Shown piece after piece: positions 3,651 through 11,945 of a DNA stretch of 64,000 nucleotides. This DNA comes from an uncultured Gammaproteobacteria bacterium (GTDB taxonomy: Bacteria > Patescibacteriota > Patescibacteriia > Magasanikbacterales > GWA2-37-8). Both the position numbers and the translations under genes were made by a program. Each line of letters opens with the position of its first letter. The stretch's first letter is position 1. The notes beneath the pieces were generated by a model. The model worked only from the letters and a program-made list of their open reading frames with translations, was not told where the DNA came from and ran no database searches. The stretch is from assembly GCA_964355175.1 (NCBI GenBank), contig CAYHBZ010000001.1, positions 445 through 64,444 of the forward strand, given 5' to 3'.

Positions 3651-4403
3651 ATGTACGAGATTGCTCTTGTAGTTTTCTTAGTCATAGTGCTAGGTCTGCG
3701 TGTGGTCCAACAGTATGAAAAAGGCGTAGTGTTTCGCTTGGGTAAGATTATTGGTATCAAAGAACCTGGTTTAAATTGGGTAATTCCATTTATCGACCAG
3801 GTGCGCAAAGTGGATTTTCGCACCATTACTTTGCCAATTTCTCCGCAAAAAATTATTACCAAGGATAATGTATCGGTAGATGTGTCTGCCGTGGCTTATT
3901 ACAAAATCGTGGATGGTGTGAAAAGTATTGTGGCAATTGAAAATGTGATGTCCGCCATCAATCAGATTGCTCAGACTTCCGTGCGTAATATTGTTGGGCG
4001 CTTTCAATTGGATGAAATCTTGAGCGAACGCGAAGCAATTAACAAAGAAATTGCTGTAGTATTGGATGCCCATACCGAAGCCTGGGGTGTGGTGGTATCG
4101 GTAGTAGAAATCAAAGATATTGAATTGCCGGAAGGCATGCAGCGCGCCATGGCCAAACAAGCCGAAGCCGAGCGTGAAAAACGCGCCAAAATTATTGCGG
4201 CTGAAGGTGAATTCTTAGCTTCTCAAAAATTGGCCGATGCGGCCGACATTATTGCCGCTCATCCGATTGCTCTCCAATTGCGCAATTTGCAGACTATGGC
4301 CGAAATTAGTGTAGAGAAGAATTCCACTATCATCTTCCCGGCCCAAATGATGAGTACAATCTCCGATATTAAAAATTTTGTTGCCGGTGAAGGTATAAAA
4401 TAA
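3651..4403 (+). CDS. SPFH/band-7 (stomatin-like) membrane protein
   Basis: N-terminal TM followed by an SPFH core (GVVFRLGK..., RAMAKQAEAEREKRAKII coiled coil). Confidence 0.85.
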   Translation: MYEIALVVFLVIVLGLRVVQQYEKGVVFRLGKIIGIKEPGLNWVIPFIDQVRKVDFRTITLPISPQKIITKDNVSVDVSAVAYYKIVDGVKSIVAIENVMSAINQIAQTSVRNIVGRFQLDEILSEREAINKEIAVVLDAHTEAWGVVVSVVEIKDIELPEGMQRAMAKQAEAEREKRAKIIAAEGEFLASQKLADAADIIAAHPIALQLRNLQTMAEISVEKNSTIIFPAQMMSTISDIKNFVAGEGIK

Positions 4404-4449
4404 ATTATTCAAAAGCCTCGACCAGTGTTGGGGCTTTTTTGTTTTTAGG

Positions 4450-4478
4450 TTGTCAAAAAGCCGTTTTTATGCTATAGT
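4450..4478 (+). promoter_or_regulatory. sigma70-like promoter TTGTCA-N17-TATAGT
   Basis: Hexamers with a 17-nt spacer, 10 nt upstream of the ATG at 4488. Confidence 0.5.
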
Positions 4479-4487
4479 TAGTTTATT

Positions 4488-5216
4488 ATGTTTGATACTC
4501 TTCTAGTTATTTGGAATCAATTTTTGTTGATTCCGCTTGTGAACGCCTTGATCTGGATTTACAATAATTTCACTGACCACAATTTAGGCTGGGCCGTAGT
4601 ATGGCTCACGGTTTTGTTACGATTTGTTTTGTTACCGCTCACTATTATTTCTGAGCGTAATTCCGTAAAACAAGAAAAAGCTCAGGAGGAAGCCCTAGAA
4701 GCTGCTCAAGCTTTTCGTCATGATAGTATTGCCCAAAACGAGGAAATTCGTAAAATAATCAAAAGAAATAAGATCTCTCCTTGGGCCAAAGTGCTTACGT
4801 TGCTGATTCAATTACTCGTGTTAGTACTGCTTTATCAGGTGTTTGTGCGCGGTATCACCGGAGACAGACTAGCCAAAATTTTGTACCCTTCGATAGATTT
4901 TCCAGGTAAAATTAACACCAATTTTTATGGCTTTGAGATTGGTCATATCCATGATTGGATTTGGGCTGGAATAGCCGCTGTTTATATTTTTGCTTATACT
5001 GTTTTTGAAAATCGTAATCAGAAACATTGGGAAAATAGTCAGGTAGTTTTTCTATTTTTATTCCCACTATTTACCTTTACCGCGCTATGGATGTTGCCGA
5101 TGGTAAAGTCCTTGTTTATTTTGACTTCCATGGTATTTTCTGATATAATCAGCGTATTAATATATGTGCTTTTTTCCGCTAAACCCAAAGATACGGGCGG
5201 GGGAGGCCACCACTAA
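4488..5216 (+). CDS. yidC: YidC/Oxa1-like membrane insertase (short form)
   Basis: Multi-TM protein; LLRFVLLPL and KVLTLLIQLLVLVLLYQV resemble conserved YidC TM motifs. Confidence 0.55.
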   Translation: MFDTLLVIWNQFLLIPLVNALIWIYNNFTDHNLGWAVVWLTVLLRFVLLPLTIISERNSVKQEKAQEEALEAAQAFRHDSIAQNEEIRKIIKRNKISPWAKVLTLLIQLLVLVLLYQVFVRGITGDRLAKILYPSIDFPGKINTNFYGFEIGHIHDWIWAGIAAVYIFAYTVFENRNQKHWENSQVVFLFLFPLFTFTALWMLPMVKSLFILTSMVFSDIISVLIYVLFSAKPKDTGGGGHH

Positions 5217-5221
5217 AATTT

Positions 5222-5791
5222 ATGGCCGGAGATTCTTTAGATAAATTAATGTATTCGTTCGTAGTGGACGATGTTCTCAAAGGCTTTTTTATCACCGTCC
5301 CACCAGGTTATGTTGCTTGTGTCTATGATTTGGGTCGCGGTGTATTGAAAAAAGTTTTGACCCCAGGCTTACACCTCAAAATTCCTTTTTGGCAGAAAGC
5401 CAAGCTGTTTAATGTGCAGACCTTGGAATATTCCATCAATCGTCAATTCAATGTCCAAAATGAAAAAGCTTTGGGAGATATTCCAATAGCCGCTATGACC
5501 CAGGACGGTATGCGTGTGGGTGTAGAGGGGACTGTATTACTCCGCTTGGATGTTCATCAGATTCCAAGCATCTGGCAACAGATCGGTGAAGATTTTGTCG
5601 CTAAGATTATCCGCCCGACTATCCGCAGTAGAGTACGTATGGTATTTAGTAAATTTGATCAGAATGAGATCGTAAGCACCAAGCGTGACGCGGTAGAGAT
5701 GGATCTCAAAAATGAGCTCGAACGCATCTTTTATGCTCGTGGGATATATGTAGAAAATGTTCTTTTGCATGAAGTGCAGACTATAAAATAA
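5222..5791 (+). CDS. SPFH/prohibitin-like domain protein
   Basis: Band-7 core pattern (GLHLKIPF..., VLLRLDV..., ARGIYVENVLL). Confidence 0.65.
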   Translation: MAGDSLDKLMYSFVVDDVLKGFFITVPPGYVACVYDLGRGVLKKVLTPGLHLKIPFWQKAKLFNVQTLEYSINRQFNVQNEKALGDIPIAAMTQDGMRVGVEGTVLLRLDVHQIPSIWQQIGEDFVAKIIRPTIRSRVRMVFSKFDQNEIVSTKRDAVEMDLKNELERIFYARGIYVENVLLHEVQTIK

Positions 5792-5851
5792 AAGCCTAAA
5801 AGACCATGTAAAATGGTCTTTTTTGTTTATTTTAAGCCAAAGTTTAATCCC

Positions 5852-5880
5852 TTGACAGTGTGGATAAGTTCTGGTATATT
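5852..5880 (+). promoter_or_regulatory. promoter TTGACA-N17-TATATT for the hrcA operon
   Basis: Consensus -35, 17-nt spacer, -10 overlapping the CIRCE element. Confidence 0.6.
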
Positions 5881-5905
5881 ATCACTCGTAAGGTTAGAGT
5901 GATAA
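5879..5905 (+). promoter_or_regulatory. CIRCE operator (TTATCACTC-N9-GAGTGATAA)
   Basis: Perfect 9-bp inverted repeat with N9 spacer, one mismatch per half-site to TTAGCACTC-N9-GAGTGCTAA; it sits directly upstream of hrcA. Confidence 0.8.
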
Positions 5906-5906
5906 C

Positions 5907-6593
5907 ATGCCTATGAATACCCGCCAAGAACAACTCCTCACCCTCGTAATTGAAAAATATATTGCTACGGCCCAACCAATTGGGTCGAAAGTTTTGGTGT
6001 CTGAAGCTGGTTTAGATTGGAGCGAAGCCACTGTCCGCAATGAATTGCGCGAACTGGAAGAGATGGGCTACCTGACTCATCCTCACACCTCAGCTGGTCG
6101 TATTCCTACCGAAGCAGGGTATAAGTACTATATTGAAAAAACTGATTGGGAAAAAATGAAAGTCGGCAAGAAAGAGTCAGATGCTTTGGAAAGTTTTTTT
6201 GGTTTTGAAGACAAAATTCAAGCTCAAAAAAATCTAGCAAAAGTTTTGGCCGCTATCACTCAGGAAACCGTTATCTTTGCTTTTTCTCCCAATTCGATTT
6301 ATTACACCGGTCTTTCCAACTTATTTTCCAAACCGGAATTTATCGAATTAGGTATAGTGGGGGATGTATCGCAAGTTTTTGATCGCTGTGAAGATTGTAT
6401 TCCTGGTTTTTACGATCTTGTTTCTGGTGAAATTAAATTTTTTGTTGGTACTGAGCATCCGTTTGGAAATATGTTATCCGTCGCGTCTTTTAAATTTGGT
6501 GACAGCTTGTTGATATTGTTGGCGCCAAATCGCACCGATTACAAACGCAATTATTCGCTTTTACAATTAGTTAAAGAAATTTTAAACAAGTAA
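5907..6593 (+). CDS. hrcA: heat-inducible repressor HrcA (short, 228 aa)
   Basis: N-terminal wHTH (IGSKVL...ATVRNELRELEEMGYL...HTSAGRIPT). Confidence 0.85.
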   Translation: MPMNTRQEQLLTLVIEKYIATAQPIGSKVLVSEAGLDWSEATVRNELRELEEMGYLTHPHTSAGRIPTEAGYKYYIEKTDWEKMKVGKKESDALESFFGFEDKIQAQKNLAKVLAAITQETVIFAFSPNSIYYTGLSNLFSKPEFIELGIVGDVSQVFDRCEDCIPGFYDLVSGEIKFFVGTEHPFGNMLSVASFKFGDSLLILLAPNRTDYKRNYSLLQLVKEILNK

Positions 6594-6594
6594 T

Positions 6595-7527
6595 ATGACT
6601 GATTTAAATACAGAAAAAAAGTTCCCAAGAGTAGTGGTTGGTGCCTATATATTTAACAAAGAAGGTAAAATGTTTGTAATGCGCTCTCCTAGTTGGGGTG
6701 GTCGTTTAATTGGTCCAGGCGGCCATGTAGAATACGGCGAAACTGGAGAAGAAGCTTTAAAACGCGAAGTGAAAGAGGAAACTAATTTAGATATTGCCGA
6801 TATTGAACTATTGGGCACTCTAGAATTAGTTGAACATCCTGGATATAAAAGTAAAAAACATTTTTTAGGACTTAATTACAGAGCTAATGTTGTGGGAGAA
6901 GATTATGAAATAAAATTAGATGAACGAGAAGCGTCTGAATATTTTTGGTTAACACCAGAAGAGATTGTTAAAAGAGACGATGTGGTTGATATTGTAAAAG
7001 AAAATGTTGAAAAATTTTTAATAAAAGACAAAAAAAGTTTTTGGGGAAGTAAAGAATGTAAAGATTGCTCTGCAAATACAGATAAAATTGAAGAATATAA
7101 AAAAGATTGGCAGCGTGCGCTAGCAGATTATAAAAATTTACAAAAAGAAACTAGTGAGCGCCGTGGCGAATGGGCGCAAATGAGCAAGGCGAATATTCTC
7201 GAAGATTTTATTCCAGTTTACGACAATTTCAAATCCGCTTTTTTTCATCATCCTCAGTTACAAGTTGATAATGAAGAACATAAGCAAATGAAGAACTGGA
7301 TTGATGGTGTCGGATTTATCATGAAACAATTTGGTGATGTGATGAAAGCGCACGGTATCGAAGAAATAAAAACTGTCGGAGAAAAATTTGACCCAAATAT
7401 GCATGAATCCATGGGCGAAGAAGAAGTGGAAGGAAAAGAACCGGGGATAGTAATTAAAGAATTAATAGGTGGCTATAAAATGGGAGGAAAAATTATTAAA
7501 GCCGCCAAAGTAACAATTACAAAATAA
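6595..7527 (+). CDS. grpE: Nudix hydrolase domain fused to a GrpE nucleotide-exchange domain
   Basis: Nudix box GGHVEYGETGEEALKREVKEETNL in the N-terminal half; C-terminal half matches the GrpE core (ILEDFIPVYDNF..., KFDPNMHESM..., GYKMGGKIIKAAKV). Confidence 0.75.
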   Translation: MTDLNTEKKFPRVVVGAYIFNKEGKMFVMRSPSWGGRLIGPGGHVEYGETGEEALKREVKEETNLDIADIELLGTLELVEHPGYKSKKHFLGLNYRANVVGEDYEIKLDEREASEYFWLTPEEIVKRDDVVDIVKENVEKFLIKDKKSFWGSKECKDCSANTDKIEEYKKDWQRALADYKNLQKETSERRGEWAQMSKANILEDFIPVYDNFKSAFFHHPQLQVDNEEHKQMKNWIDGVGFIMKQFGDVMKAHGIEEIKTVGEKFDPNMHESMGEEEVEGKEPGIVIKELIGGYKMGGKIIKAAKVTITK

Positions 7528-7550: not shown

Positions 7551-7982
7551 ATGACTTTAATACGCTGGAGCCCTATGTGGGATCCGTTTGATCAGTCAGA
7601 CGAAGCTTTCAATCGTTTGCCGGCAGTAAATTCCAGTATGAAAGCCTTTACACCCGCCGTAGATATATACGAAACCGACAAATCCGTAGTGGTAGAAACA
7701 CCGCTCGCTGGATTTAGTCCCGAAGATGTCAAAGTAAGTGTAGAAAATGGCGTGCTCACTCTGCAAGGTGAACACCACAAAGAACACGAAATTGAGGAAA
7801 AAAATTATCATCGTAAAGAAGTGCGTAGTGGATCATTTTTCCGCCAGATCGCTTTGCCGGCAGAAGTGGCCGAAGATAAAGTAGAAGCGACCTTTGAAGA
7901 TGGTATACTGAAAATTGAATGTCCGAAATTACAATTATCTGAACCAAAAAAAGTAGAAATTAAAATTACTAAAAAGAAATAA
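7551..7982 (+). CDS. Hsp20/alpha-crystallin small heat shock protein
   Basis: ACD pattern (PAVDIYETD..., GVLTLQGEH..., FEDGILKIECPK). Confidence 0.85.
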   Translation: MTLIRWSPMWDPFDQSDEAFNRLPAVNSSMKAFTPAVDIYETDKSVVVETPLAGFSPEDVKVSVENGVLTLQGEHHKEHEIEEKNYHRKEVRSGSFFRQIALPAEVAEDKVEATFEDGILKIECPKLQLSEPKKVEIKITKKK

Positions 7983-7984
7983 CT

Positions 7985-8386
7985 ATGCCAACTTCTAAAG
8001 AAGATTTAAAAAGTTTAACCAAATTAGGCAAGGGTGCGACTTCCAAAGTAGAAAAAAGTTTGGAAGTATTTCCTAATCACGCCGGACCAAATATGGAAGT
8101 GGAGCTGGTATGTACCGAATTCACTTGCCGTTGCCCGCTTACTGGTCAACCGGATTACGCTGAAATTGTAATCAATTATGTGCCGGATAAATATGTAGTG
8201 GAAAGTAAATCCATGAAACTATATTTAGAAACATATCGCAACGAAGGAGTTTTTCATGAGCATTTGGCTGTAGATATTGGAAAAGATTTTGTGAAGTTCG
8301 TGAAGCCAAAAAAATGTGAAGTGGAAGTAAGATTTAATATCAGAGGTGGCATCGCCATTTCCGCAAAATGGAAAGACGGAAAATAA
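7985..8386 (+). CDS. queF: NADPH-dependent 7-cyano-7-deazaguanine reductase QueF (type I)
   Basis: Catalytic-Cys region CRCPLTGQPDYA and the QueF motif ESKSMKLYLETYRN. Confidence 0.75.
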   Translation: MPTSKEDLKSLTKLGKGATSKVEKSLEVFPNHAGPNMEVELVCTEFTCRCPLTGQPDYAEIVINYVPDKYVVESKSMKLYLETYRNEGVFHEHLAVDIGKDFVKFVKPKKCEVEVRFNIRGGIAISAKWKDGK

Positions 8387-8413: not shown

Positions 8414-10327
8414 ATGTCAAAAGTACTTGGAATCGACTTAGGTACAACCAATAGTTGTATGGCTATCATCGAGGGGGGCCAACCAAAAGTTCTCGAAAAT
8501 AAAGAAGGTGCACGCACCACTCCGTCCATCGTGGCTGTGAATAAATCAGGCGAACGCTTGGTAGGTCAGCTGTCCAAACGTCAGGCTGTGACCAATCCGG
8601 AAAATACTTTGTATTCCATCAAGCGCCTGATCGGTCGCAATTGGAATGACGAAGAAGTACAGCGCGATCTCAAACTCATGCCTTACAAGATTGTAAAATC
8701 TGGTGAAGGTGTGAAAGTGGTAATGCAAGGTAAAGAATATTCTCCTCAGGAAATCTCGGCCATGATTTTGCAAAAAATGAAAGCCGATGCCGAAGAACGC
8801 TTGGGAGAAAAAATTACCGAAGCAGTAATTACCGTACCAGCTTATTTTGATGATTCTCAGCGCCAGGCTACCAAAGACGCCGGTGAAATTGCCGGTCTAA
8901 AAGTGTTGCGTATTATCAACGAACCAACTGCCGCCGCTTTGGCCTATGGTTTTGATAAAAAAACTGAACAAAAAATCGTAGTTTACGATTTGGGTGGTGG
9001 TACTTTCGATGTGTCTATCCTTGAAGTCGCTCCAGACAATGTGCAGGTGCTTTCTACCAACGGTGATACTCATCTTGGTGGTGATGATTTTGATCAAGTA
9101 ATTATTCAATGGATTTTGGATGAATTTAAAAAAGATCAAGGCGTAGATTTAGGCAGAGATCCTTTGTCTTTGCAGCGTATTAAAGAAGCTGCTGAAAAAG
9201 CCAAGATCGAATTGTCCACTGCTCAAGAAAGTGAAATCAATCAACCATTTATTACTTCCGATGCCAACGGTCCGAAACATTTGGTTTTGAAATTGACTCG
9301 TTCTAAATTGGAAGAATTGGTTGGCGGTCTCGTAGAAAAAACTTTGGGTCCAGTGAAAAAAGCTCTCGAAGATGCCAAACTTTCTCCTTCTGATCTCAAC
9401 GAAGTAATCATGGTCGGTGGTATGACTCGCATGCCATTGGTGTTGGCTACTGTCGAAAAATTCTTTGGTAAAAAACCAAACATTAGTGTGAATCCAGATG
9501 AGGTGGTAGCTATCGGTGCGGCTGTGCAAGGTGGTGTGCTCAAAGGCGATGTGAAAGATGTGTTGTTGCTTGATGTGACTCCATTATCATTTGGTATCGA
9601 AACTATGGGTAGCGTGATGACCAAACTCATCGAACGCAATACCACTATCCCAACTTCTAAATCTCAAACTTTCTCCACGGCCGCTGACAACCAGCCAAGT
9701 GTAGAAATTCATGTATTACAAGGTGAGCGTCCAATGGCCGCTGACAACAAATCTTTGGGTCGCTTTATTTTGGATGGTATCCCAATGGCTCCTCGCGGTA
9801 TTCCGCAAGTCGAAGTGACTTTTGATATCGATGCCAACGGTATCTTGAATGTAAAAGCCAAAGACAAAGGTACTAACAAAGAACAAAGTATTCGTATCGA
9901 AGCCTCCACTGGTCTTTCCAAAGAAGAAATTGAAAAGATGAAAAAAGAAGCCGAATTGCACGCTGACGAGGATAAGAAAAAACAAGAACTTATCGAAGCG
10001 CGCAATATCGCGGATTCCATGGTCTACACCACCGAAAAAATGATGAAAGATGTGGAAGAAAAGAAAGTGGAAATTACTGCCGAAGAAAAATCCAAAGTGG
10101 AAGAAAATTTGAAAATAGTAAAAGAGCTAAAAGACAAAGACGATGTTGAGGCTCTCAAAAAAGCTGCTGACGAACTATCTAAAGCTGCTCAAGCGGTGGG
10201 TATGAAGATGTATCAGAAAGAACAAGACGCTGCCAAAGGGGCTCCGGGTGCCGCTGGTACTGAAGGCGCCGCTCCTGGTACCGACAAAAAAGAGGAAGGC
10301 CCAATTGAAGGGGAAGTAGTGAAATAA
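8414..10327 (+). CDS. dnaK: molecular chaperone DnaK (Hsp70)
   Basis: [28 protein letters not shown] equivalents; 637 aa. Confidence 0.97.
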
Positions 10328-10351
10328 TCCAATTTAAATGATATAATATGC

Positions 10352-10380
10352 GGGCAGACATTTCGTCTGCCCTCGTATTT
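10352..10380 (+). terminator. rho-independent terminator after dnaK
   Basis: GGGCAGAC-loop-GTCTGCCC stem followed by a T-rich tail. Confidence 0.7.
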
Positions 10381-10396
10381 ATAAAAAGTATACCAT

Positions 10397-10837
10397 ATGT
10401 CCGATAATTTTGAAGCCGACCAAATCGCCGCCGCTGAAATGGGCAAGCAAGATCTAAATAAATTTAGAGCGTATTTTGATCGTTTAAAAGAAAAATTTGC
10501 TAGCAGTAATGGTACGATCGTTTTGGTAAACTCGGAAAATATCGGACAGCCGGAATTAGATGTTTATAAAAAATTTGTTACTTTTGTAAAATCTCTCAGT
10601 GCCGATAATTGTGATTTTAATCAGGTGGTGGCTACTAGCAAAGAGTTGATAGAAGAAGCAAAAAATTGCCCGGAAAAAAATTTTTCCGCTTGGATAAAAA
10701 ATGAAATTGGGCCGTTTTTAATGTTGAAATTTTTGGCTACCAGTTGGGAAGGGTCTGTTGATGATGAAGATGACAGAGGTGTAAAATTTGTAGTTGATTA
10801 TGCTATTTTCAATACTGATCCAGAAAATTTGTACTAA
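10397..10837 (+). CDS. hypothetical protein between dnaK and dnaJ
   Basis: 146-aa ORF in operon context; no recognisable motif. Confidence 0.5.
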   Translation: MSDNFEADQIAAAEMGKQDLNKFRAYFDRLKEKFASSNGTIVLVNSENIGQPELDVYKKFVTFVKSLSADNCDFNQVVATSKELIEEAKNCPEKNFSAWIKNEIGPFLMLKFLATSWEGSVDDEDDRGVKFVVDYAIFNTDPENLY

Positions 10838-10853
10838 ATTCCGTAAATAAATT

Positions 10854-11945
10854 ATGTCCAAAGATTATTATAAAATATTAGGGGTTGAAAAAAACGCCAC
10901 TGCCGATGAAGTCAAAAAAGCTTTCAAGAAGGCGGCGATGCAACACCATCCCGATAGACCCGGCGGCGATGAAAAAAAATTCAAAGAAGCCAACGAAGCC
11001 TACCAGGTATTATCCGACGCCGATAAGCGCGCTAAATACGACCAGTTTGGTTCAGATTTTGAACAGCAGGGTGGATTTGGCGGTGGCGGTAATTGGGATG
11101 ATTTCATGCGTTCGGCTCGCGGTGGTCAGGGCGGTTTTCAGTTTGAAGGCGATCTGGGAGATATCTTTGGTGAAATGTTTGGATTTGGTGGTGGCCGCTC
11201 TCGCGGTGCTTCGCGCCAATCTCGTGGCCACGATATCCAAGTAGATGCAGAGCTGGAATTCAAAGAAGCGGCTTTTGGTGTAGAAAAACATATTCATCTG
11301 CGCAAACAAAGTGCTTGTGATGTCTGTAGTGGTAGTGGTGCTGAGCCTGGCTCCAAATTAGATACCTGTAGCACCTGTAAAGGCCAAGGGCAAGTAGTCC
11401 AGGTCCAGCGCACATTTTTGGGTGCTATGCAGACCGTAGTGACTTGTACCGATTGTCAGGGCAGGGGACAGAAGCCAAGTAAAAAATGTAAACATTGTAG
11501 TGGTAGTGGCGTAATGCAAAAAGATCAGGATATTACCGTAAAAATACCAGCTGGTATTGATGAAGGCGAATCTATTCGTCTCACTGGTTACGGTGAAGCC
11601 GCTGGACATGGAGGTCAAAGCGGAGATTTGTATGTGCGCGCCCATATTAAACCAAATAAATATTTTCATCGTGAAGGTTTTGATGTGTACACTCAAAGTG
11701 AAATTAGTTTTCCTCAAGCCGTGCTTGGTGATAAAATAGAGATAGAAACAATAGACGGTCCGGTGAAACTCATGATACCCGAAGGAATTGAATCCGGACA
11801 ATTGATAAAAGTAAAAGGTCACGGCATAACCCATCTTGGTCGCACCAGTCGCGGTGACCAATTTGTAAAAATAAAAATTCGCGTGCCAAAAAGATTTAGC
11901 CGCGAAGTGCGTAAAAAATTGGAAGATTTAAAAGACGAGTTGTAA
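10854..11945 (+). CDS. dnaJ: co-chaperone DnaJ
   Basis: J-domain (HPD), G/F-rich linker, four CxxCxGxG zinc repeats. Confidence 0.95.
   Translation: MSKDYYKILGVEKNATADEVKKAFKKAAMQHHPDRPGGDEKKFKEANEAYQVLSDADKRAKYDQFGSDFEQQGGFGGGGNWDDFMRSARGGQGGFQFEGDLGDIFGEMFGFGGGRSRGASRQSRGHDIQVDAELEFKEAAFGVEKHIHLRKQSACDVCSGSGAEPGSKLDTCSTCKGQGQVVQVQRTFLGAMQTVVTCTDCQGRGQKPSKKCKHCSGSGVMQKDQDITVKIPAGIDEGESIRLTGYGEAAGHGGQSGDLYVRAHIKPNKYFHREGFDVYTQSEISFPQAVLGDKIEIETIDGPVKLMIPEGIESGQLIKVKGHGITHLGRTSRGDQFVKIKIRVPKRFSREVRKKLEDLKDEL

Follow-up and report, generated by a model that had tools for sequence, protein, structure and literature searches.

The stretch analysed here, hereafter called the window, comprises 64,000 nucleotides (nt) of contig CAYHBZ010000001.1 (positions 445 to 64,444; assembly GCA_964355175.1) from a bacterium placed by GTDB in the Patescibacteriota (Magasanikbacterales). 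It encodes a protein in which a Nudix hydrolase domain is joined in frame to the DnaK cochaperone GrpE. This Nudix-GrpE fusion is genuine and conserved in many Patescibacteria, and comparison with unfused relatives indicates that the Nudix domain stands in for the disordered acidic tail at the N-terminus of GrpE. With moderate confidence, we explain it as a heat-shock-regulated bifunctional protein, consisting of a normal GrpE and a dispensable Nudix module for nucleotide house-cleaning. The gene and its parts are:

6595..7527, + strand: Nudix-GrpE fusion gene encoding 310 amino acids (aa), with ATG start and TAA stop, one uninterrupted open reading frame (ORF)
6628..7017, + strand: Nudix fold domain, residues 12-141 (AlphaFold2 model, Foldseek, Pfam)
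6721..6789, + strand: Nudix box G43..L65 (GHVEYGETGEEALKREVKEETNL), from residue conservation in fused homologues
7018..7065, + strand: flexible linker with the basic-aromatic stretch KDKKSFWGSK, residues 142-157, with low predicted local distance difference test (pLDDT) scores
7057..7068, + strand: CxxC motif (C155, C158) at the N-terminal start of the stalk helix (sequence, homologue counts)
7066..7245, + strand: long GrpE stalk helix running into the first bundle helix, residues 158-217 (DSSP, alignment to 4ani, 8gb3, 3a6m and 1dkg)
7273..7350, + strand: second bundle helix, residues 227-252 (AlphaFold2 model)
7357..7521, + strand: GrpE C-terminal beta-sheet domain, residues 255-309 (model, alignment, Foldseek)

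An earlier note, written from the letters of this DNA alone, had described an ORF at these coordinates holding Nudix and then GrpE, and its start, stop and both domains were confirmed. Pfam searches with the 310-aa protein matched NUDIX (PF00293) at residues 11-129 with 74.1 bits (cutoff 21.1; E 1.4e-20) and GrpE (PF01025) at residues 161-310 with 119.1 bits (cutoff 25.8; E 2e-34), both scores lying far above chance level. The GrpE profile is covered at positions 23-165 of 165, and the C-terminal half also aligned to the G. kaustophilus GrpE with an E value of 6e-20.

An independent Logan assembly of run SRR24858484 yielded a 100% identical fusion protein. The best 120 matches from a homologue search of a 5.8-billion-protein collection included 101 with both PF00293 and PF01025, at lengths of about 270-330 aa and 45-95% identity. 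In a survey with one genome per GTDB species, which returned the 80 best loci, an intact Nudix box was found inside the GrpE ORF in 34, and a profile search placed both domains in a single ORF in 36 of 84 loci, including L062 and L004, the latter being the window's own gene from a second assembly. These fused loci come from records titled Magasanikbacteria, Falkowbacteria or 'Patescibacteria group', and public databases hold hundreds of such proteins under the names 'nucleotide exchange factor GrpE', 'molecular chaperone GrpE' or 'nucleoside triphosphatase'. An artefact, in which an overlooked frameshift or stop codon or a chimeric contig joined two separate genes, was for practical purposes ruled out. 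Nothing was found in its favour, and its probability is negligible in view of the identical protein in the second assembly, the same architecture in more than 100 database clusters, the continuous ORF in 34 species-level genomes and the unfused relatives, which have no adjoining Nudix gene that might have been joined. The architecture had been called unusual for a GrpE; this holds against the textbook protein, but not within these lineages, where the fusion is common.

Nudix domain, linker and GrpE half

The AlphaFold2 monomer model had a mean pLDDT of 86.5. Its Nudix half reached 10-residue block means of at least 92 across residues 11-140, and Foldseek matched it to the R. felis MutT (4kyx; template modelling (TM) score 0.82) and to Arabidopsis AtNUDX1 (5gp0; TM 0.76). 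The canonical Nudix box quoted in the earlier note is present at residues 42-65 and reads G43-HVEYG-E49-TGEEALK-R57-E58-V-K-E61-E62-T-N64-L65. It fits the pattern GX5EX7REUXEEXGU save for one deviation, N64 for the penultimate G, a position at which the family consensus is G. Across 56 fused homologues (45-73% identity) G43, E49, R57 and E61 are invariant, and E58, E62, H89, E112 and W118 are conserved in at least 90%. Since the catalytic residues are invariant or nearly so across this deep divergence, the domain is probably an active enzyme.

With a predicted TM score (pTM) of 0.48, the model leaves the orientation of the Nudix and GrpE halves to each other unfixed. They are separated by the linker, in which the block means fall to 62 and 59 (residues 141-160) and residues 146-154 score below 50; an equivalent of its basic-aromatic stretch, 'K.K.GFF..K', is found in unfused relatives too.

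The GrpE half superimposed on human GrpEL1 (9bls_C) with a TM score of 0.84 (Foldseek) and aligned to residues 43-185 of the M. tuberculosis, 29-166 of the T. thermophilus, 73-212 of the G. kaustophilus and 62-194 of the E. coli GrpE. It keeps the family invariants W172, R174, A177, D178, Y179, N181, L182, P207, F265, H270 and G293. The NCBIfam GrpE equivalog models, which serve lineage-specific naming and do not define the family, gave at best 88.2 bits (cutoff 137), as expected because this divergent Patescibacteria sequence matches by its C-terminal 150 residues only. In solved complexes the beta domain is the GrpE element that contacts the nucleotide-binding domain of DnaK, and in the M. 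tuberculosis GrpE the first 44 residues are disordered (PMC10803776).

The closest unfused GrpEs have 189-200 aa, are 66-87% identical over the GrpE part and open with an acidic low-complexity tail of 25-35 residues; from the segment 'K.K.GFF..KCxxC..EEYKKDWQRALADY' to the end, fused and unfused proteins have their sequence in common. The view that the long N-terminal GrpE helix had been replaced was not borne out, as a continuous helix was modelled at residues 158-217 and the alignment spans the whole ordered part of the solved GrpEs. Together with the comparison with unfused GrpEs, this led us to conclude that the long helix is retained and that it is the tail which has been substituted.

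A CxxC motif at the start of the stalk was counted in 75 of 113 fused and in 37 of 62 unfused Patescibacteria GrpEs, one from a Paceibacter included. Its context is often '[GS]FF-x3-CKxCE', variants are CxxCxxC and CxC, and the motif was also seen just upstream of the GrpE stalk in loci L007, L008, L017, L020, L054, L068, L072, L078 and L079. In a parallel dimer it would gather four cysteines, potentially as a zinc clasp or as a redox switch. We know of no CxxC feature of this sort in characterised bacterial GrpEs.

Other layouts were also noticed. One protein (P0052, 403 aa, from a single contig) has the order Nudix-GrpE-S1, with an S1 RNA-binding domain after a GrpE match that runs no further than profile position 155; an additional fusion would explain this, as would read-through into the adjoining gene. 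A 453-codon open frame (L083, 3176-4534) has GrpE at residues 305-453, preceded by about 300 residues in which neither a Nudix box nor a Pfam match was found. These residues may be an N-terminal extension of another kind or no more than open frame upstream of the gene; with the first start codon the protein would have 296 aa.

Heat-shock operon and distribution of the fusion

The fusion gene occupies the grpE slot of an hrcA-grpE-dnaK operon, as the earlier note had proposed, with a controlling inverted repeat of chaperone expression (CIRCE)-like operator and hrcA upstream and with hsp20, queF and dnaK downstream. The gene order is CIRCE-hrcA-fusion-hsp20-queF-dnaK-x-dnaJ, where x is a 146-aa gene:

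5798-5822: terminator-like hairpin ending the upstream unit (pattern match)
5852..5880, + strand: sigma-70-like promoter candidate, TTGACA-17-TATATT with TG extension (11 of 12 consensus positions; consensus match only)
5879..5905, + strand: CIRCE-like operator, perfect inverted repeat TTATCACTC-N9-GAGTGATAA, 2 nt upstream of hrcA
5907..6593, + strand: short HrcA-like repressor gene, 228 aa (PF01628 24.5 bits, cutoff 22.2; winged-helix matches)
7551..7982, + strand: hsp20, small heat-shock protein (Pfam)
7985..8386, + strand: queF, preQ0 reductase, inside the operon (PF14489 95.7 bits)
8414..10327, + strand: dnaK, presumed client of the fused GrpE, its product 92% identical to the DnaK of unfused relatives
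10352..10372, + strand: terminator-like hairpin 3' of dnaK (pattern match only)
10397-10837: 146-aa gene between dnaK and dnaJ (no Pfam match)
10854..11945, + strand: dnaJ (gene order; Pfam domains on syntenic genes)

The CIRCE-like site differs by two mismatches from TTAGCACTC-N9-GAGTGCTAA and is the sole match with up to three mismatches in the window (chance expectation 0.01). A single nt separates the hrcA stop from the ATG of the fusion, and all related loci have hrcA in synteny. The slot between hrcA and hsp20 or dnaK holds the fusion gene in each fused locus examined, with no separate grpE nearby. Profiles from each half of the fusion detected no second GrpE and no second Nudix of this family in the 64-kb window, and no assembly with two GrpE loci was found among the 80 best genome loci, all whole-genome shotgun prefixes being distinct. 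The fusion protein is likely the GrpE of the cell.

Characterised HrcA proteins have about 340 aa. The HrcA-like protein of the window has 228 aa (226 aa in relatives), and its Pfam match covers the C-terminal part of the model only. The ESKSMKLYL motif of the window's QueF is intact and its gene lies between hsp20 and dnaK in the CIRCE-controlled operon; in relatives a Vut_1/YhhQ-type queuosine-precursor transporter adjoins queF (e.g. L002, 6017-7105). Queuosine salvage genes under heat-shock control are unexpected. The 146-aa gene, preceded by a promoter-like site of its own (10319-10347), has a conserved counterpart of about 146 aa at the equivalent position of fused and unfused relatives (L002, 9095-9532). 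Directly upstream of the operon stands a Band7-YidC-Band7 trio (window 3651-5791), which is found in nearly all Magasanikbacteria-type loci and is absent from the Falkowbacteria-type fused loci. Recent horizontal acquisition was considered from base composition; the G+C content dips only slightly (0.32-0.33 vs 0.36-0.43), which is not diagnostic.

Unfused relatives display the gene order Band7-YidC-Band7-HrcA-GrpE-HSP20-(Vut_1)-QueF-DnaK-x-DnaJ. Because their hrcA and grpE lie 1 nt apart, there is no room for a separate Nudix gene between them, and in 47 loci a profile search out to 4 kb revealed no Nudix belonging to this family. The origin of the unfused forms by splitting of a fused gene was rejected on the same result, no such Nudix ORF being present. 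A protein of 217 aa (P0046) was considered as carrying a decaying Nudix remnant, a reading discarded because its gene begins at a contig edge.

Neighbour-joining (NJ) trees of the GrpE domain showed a uniformly fused Falkowbacteria-type clade and a patchy distribution of the fusion in Magasanikbacteria. These trees are short, weakly resolved and without support values, and fused proteins are over-represented in the sample; for both reasons the count of at least 14 state changes obtained from them is not reliable. We conclude no more than that close relatives have repeatedly gained or lost the Nudix domain. In an NJ tree of the Nudix domain (127 columns, free-standing relatives included) the fused domains formed several pure clades among free-standing ones, and a single origin of the fusion was not established by this tree. 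DNA alignments were uninformative on the indel boundaries between fused and unfused genes. The two halves of the fusion co-vary (Mantel r 0.46, permutation maximum 0.13), as expected if they have been inherited together. When 25 DnaKs from fused loci were compared with 42 from unfused ones, no DnaK column followed the state of GrpE, and co-adaptation of DnaK with the fusion was thus not detected, the DnaK of unfused relatives being 92% identical.

Stand-alone Nudix genes were observed at two of the related loci. An unfused Magasanikbacterium (L070) encodes one of 153 aa between dnaK and dnaJ (6566-7024; Pfam E 1.9e-11), and in L062 one of 148 aa (1062-1505; Pfam E 4.5e-22) lies directly upstream of the Nudix-GrpE gene at 1520-2368, giving a tandem module. 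An association of Nudix with the dnaK operon thus recurs independently of the fusion. The L070 gene prompted a comparison with the 146-aa gene of the window as a possible cryptic Nudix, and the two were unrelated. A further observation concerns metagenome-assembled genome records titled 'uncultured Gammaproteobacteria bacterium' (L005, L010, L013, L017, L020 and about 25 more), which show the Magasanikbacteria gene order Band7-YidC-Band7-HrcA-(Nudix-)GrpE. These titles are probably placeholder or bulk labels, not taxonomy.

Relatives and substrate class of the Nudix domain

A domain-only search of 1.84 billion representatives gave 4241 matches, the best 149 of which comprised 105 free-standing proteins, 22 GrpE fusions and 22 other architectures. 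The 105 free-standing relatives have about 140 aa and 33-52% identity, many of them 38-46%; among the other architectures are HAD-Nudix (P0175 and four proteins like it), HAD-Nudix-FolB (P0262, 471 aa) and RpiB-Nudix (P0142). The nearest solved relatives are Arabidopsis NUDX1/NUDT1 (29% identity), the R. felis MutT, NUDT15, NudI and GDP-mannose mannosyl hydrolase. The nearest characterised relative is of the promiscuous NUDT1/MutT type.

None of the substrate-specific NCBIfam Nudix models reached its cutoff, the best being MutT with 40.1 bits (cutoff 97.9); the NudB model gave 21 bits (cutoff 103). Neither these models nor downstream motifs placed the domain in the MutT, NudB, RppH, NudC, adenosine diphosphate (ADP)-ribose pyrophosphatase or diadenosine polyphosphate (ApnA) hydrolase subfamily, and the region 15-19 residues downstream of the box, which holds the classical Pro/Tyr specificity markers, is variable in this family.

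The HAD-Nudix-FolB protein resembles three consecutive steps of the folate pathway on one polypeptide. Its composition would fit a Nudix step that cleaves pyrophosphate off a triphosphate, for example dihydroneopterin triphosphate (DHNTP), and AtNUDT1 acts as a DHNTP pyrophosphatase (PMC5389931). From this sister fusion and the AtNUDT1 activity, our best guess is that the Nudix domain of the window protein would be a pyrophosphohydrolase acting on a triphosphate-type small molecule.

Possible roles of the fusion and comparison with known systems

GrpE is a parallel dimer, and for this reason two Nudix domains would be displayed at the tip of the stalk, which in solved DnaK-GrpE complexes is the end close to the substrate-binding domain of DnaK. 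In the explanation that we favour, a small, MutT/NUDT1-like and apparently catalytically competent Nudix domain would replace the acidic tail on a flexible linker of about 15 residues, and the two copies would be tethered there, close to bound DnaK. They would most probably hydrolyse a nucleoside-triphosphate-like or other pyrophosphate-containing small molecule to the monophosphate and pyrophosphate or phosphate (Pi), as house-cleaning at times of stress. Fusion would provide the Nudix domain with HrcA/CIRCE co-regulation, 1:1 stoichiometry and dimerisation, and the domain would not be required for nucleotide exchange itself. The retained KDKKSFWGSK linker might still act as a pseudo-substrate. 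Structures of full-length complexes show the nucleotide-binding domain of DnaK held by the beta domain together with one helix of the stalk (PMC10803776), and the disordered GrpE tail promotes client release, in E. coli by transiently occupying the substrate site (PMC10803776, PMC12915176).

We favour an accessory, loosely coupled role because sister species without the Nudix domain keep a 92%-identical DnaK and no DnaK column tracks the fusion. These close relatives, with the same operon, have neither the domain nor a Nudix gene within 4 kb. Several points weigh against this explanation. Deletion of the GrpE N-tail impairs substrate release in both E. coli and M. tuberculosis (PMC12915176, PMC10803776), and a folded domain in place of the tail may alter GrpE function and not be neutral. 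The uniform retention of the fusion in the Falkowbacteria-type clade suggests more than a casual add-on. With no NCBIfam substrate-specific model near its cutoff, the substrate class is guesswork; at the penultimate position of the Nudix box the window protein carries N in place of G; and the 64-kb window leaves room for a second GrpE elsewhere in the genome of about 0.95 Mb.

A direct coupling, in which the tethered Nudix domain acts on the nucleotides of the DnaK cycle itself, seems to us rather unlikely. The domain might convert ADP to adenosine monophosphate and Pi after its release, making exchange irreversible at low energy charge, or it might remove DnaK-binding diadenosine tetraphosphate (Ap4A) or oxidised adenosine triphosphate analogues during stress. 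The fusion to a nucleotide exchange factor is a suggestive 'Rosetta stone' for such a coupling, and the conserved catalytic residues, the reach permitted by the flexible linker and the uniformly fused Falkowbacteria-type clade point the same way, as do structural neighbours that include the di- and triphosphate-cleaving DR0079 and the diadenosine hexaphosphate hydrolase Ndx1. Ap4A, moreover, accumulates in stress and binds DnaK (PMC7705103). The attachment site, however, is at the stalk tip by the substrate-binding domain, far from the nucleotide cleft touched by the beta domain (PMC10803776). Close relatives without the domain keep nearly the same DnaK, in which no residue co-varies with the fusion, no classical ADP-ribose or ApnA downstream motif is conserved (residues 80-88 are variable), and no Nudix subfamily could be assigned. 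That GrpE, as the exchange factor, would also hydrolyse ADP, Ap4A or damaged adenine nucleotides where DnaK reloads, possibly with a zinc- or redox-sensitive CxxC clasp adding control, we consider unlikely.

Distinctly unlikely is a structural or regulatory module, that is a non-catalytic Nudix fold or ligand sensor, which would serve as a bulky replacement of the pseudo-substrate tail tuning substrate release by DnaK, or as a nucleotide- or temperature-dependent switch. Invariant metal-binding and catalytic glutamates and an invariant arginine over deep divergence are the signature of an enzyme, and the model showed no docking of the Nudix domain on the stalk (pTM 0.48). Such a module would agree with the position of the domain, exactly that of the tail whose transient contact with the substrate-binding domain favours substrate release (PMC12915176, PMC10803776), with the linker stretch, which resembles a DnaK-binding peptide and is kept between domain and stalk in fused forms and ahead of the stalk in unfused ones, and with the precedent of non-enzymatic Nudix proteins (PMC5389931).

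The domain might also be a DHNTP-type pyrophosphatase tied to the queuosine genes of the operon (queF, and the Vut_1/YhhQ-type transporter in relatives) and not to the chaperone cycle. The DHNTP pyrophosphatase activity of the closest characterised homologue AtNUDT1, the HAD-Nudix-FolB relative and the presence of queF in the window operon, and of Vut_1 and queF in relatives, argue for this pterin/7-deazaguanine link, but queF and Vut_1 occur equally with unfused GrpE, many fused operons have no queF and the match to the NudB model is negligible, which makes it very unlikely. Hardly any credence is given to a specialised paralogue, with a canonical GrpE elsewhere serving DnaK and the fused copy in a side role: the window is 64 kb of a genome of about 0.95 Mb, but the fused gene occupies the exact slot of the unfused grpE of sister genomes, none of the 80 best genome loci shared an assembly with a second GrpE locus, and Patescibacterial genomes are small, with chaperone genes typically in single copy.

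A full-text search of the open-access literature found no published description of the Nudix-GrpE architecture; a 2025 review of GrpE-like factors does not describe it, and neither GrpE nor chaperones come up in a survey of the Nudix clan from 2017. The fusion is thus apparently a clean, conserved and undescribed elaboration of a textbook cochaperone, and it flags as bifunctional several hundred proteins labelled plain 'GrpE' or 'nucleoside triphosphatase'. The GrpE N-tail is under active study as an element coupling nucleotide exchange to client release (PMC12915176, PMC10803776). Its exchange for an enzyme across lineages, with sister species that keep a plain tail in the same operon and with a near-identical DnaK, offers a natural comparison, which bears on what GrpE accepts in place of its tail and on whether nucleotide hydrolysis can be tied to an Hsp70 exchange factor. 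The functional significance of the fusion may be modest. If the domain is an unrelated house-cleaning enzyme that merely sits on a heat-shock promoter, the fusion is an annotation point on genome-reduced bacteria and no more. If a nucleotide-processing GrpE is true, it would mean directional exchange, or a DnaK shielded from inhibitory nucleotides, in energy-poor and stress-exposed ultra-small cells.

Compared with canonical bacterial GrpEs (E. coli 1DKG, G. kaustophilus 4ANI, M. tuberculosis 8GB3, T. thermophilus 3A6M), the fusion protein has the same stalk helix, bundle, beta domain and signatures, and the hrcA-grpE-dnaK-dnaJ operon behind CIRCE, a usual setting of grpE but no requirement, is likewise shared. 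Where the canonical proteins have a disordered N-tail, common in characterised GrpEs without defining the family, the fusion has a folded Nudix domain of 130 residues and a short linker, with CxxC at the stalk start. The unfused GrpEs of sister Magasanikbacteria (P0099, P0100, P0054) share with it the linker/CxxC segment, the operon and a 92%-identical DnaK, and carry the acidic tail in place of the Nudix domain.

The Nudix half resembles small MutT/NUDT1-type hydrolases (Arabidopsis NUDX1 5GP0/6DBY, Rickettsia felis MutT 4KYX, human NUDT15, NudI) in fold (TM 0.69-0.82), intact box and size (about 130-140 aa), at 25-29% identity; unlike the window protein these enzymes are not fused to GrpE, and the window protein matches no substrate-specific family model. 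In the HAD-Nudix, HAD-Nudix-FolB and RpiB-Nudix proteins a 34-40% identical Nudix module is likewise fused to a partner. These fusions join metabolic enzymes of consecutive steps, whereas GrpE is a chaperone cofactor without an obvious shared substrate.

In concept the fusion may be likened to the multi-domain Hsp70 exchange factors of eukaryotes, the BAG-family proteins with ubiquitin-like or other modules and Hsp110, which also combine an exchange factor with an extra module, one that ties the chaperone cycle to another activity. Their folds and ancestry are unrelated to those of Nudix-GrpE, and to our knowledge no eukaryotic BAG or Hsp110 exchange factor carries a nucleotide pyrophosphohydrolase.

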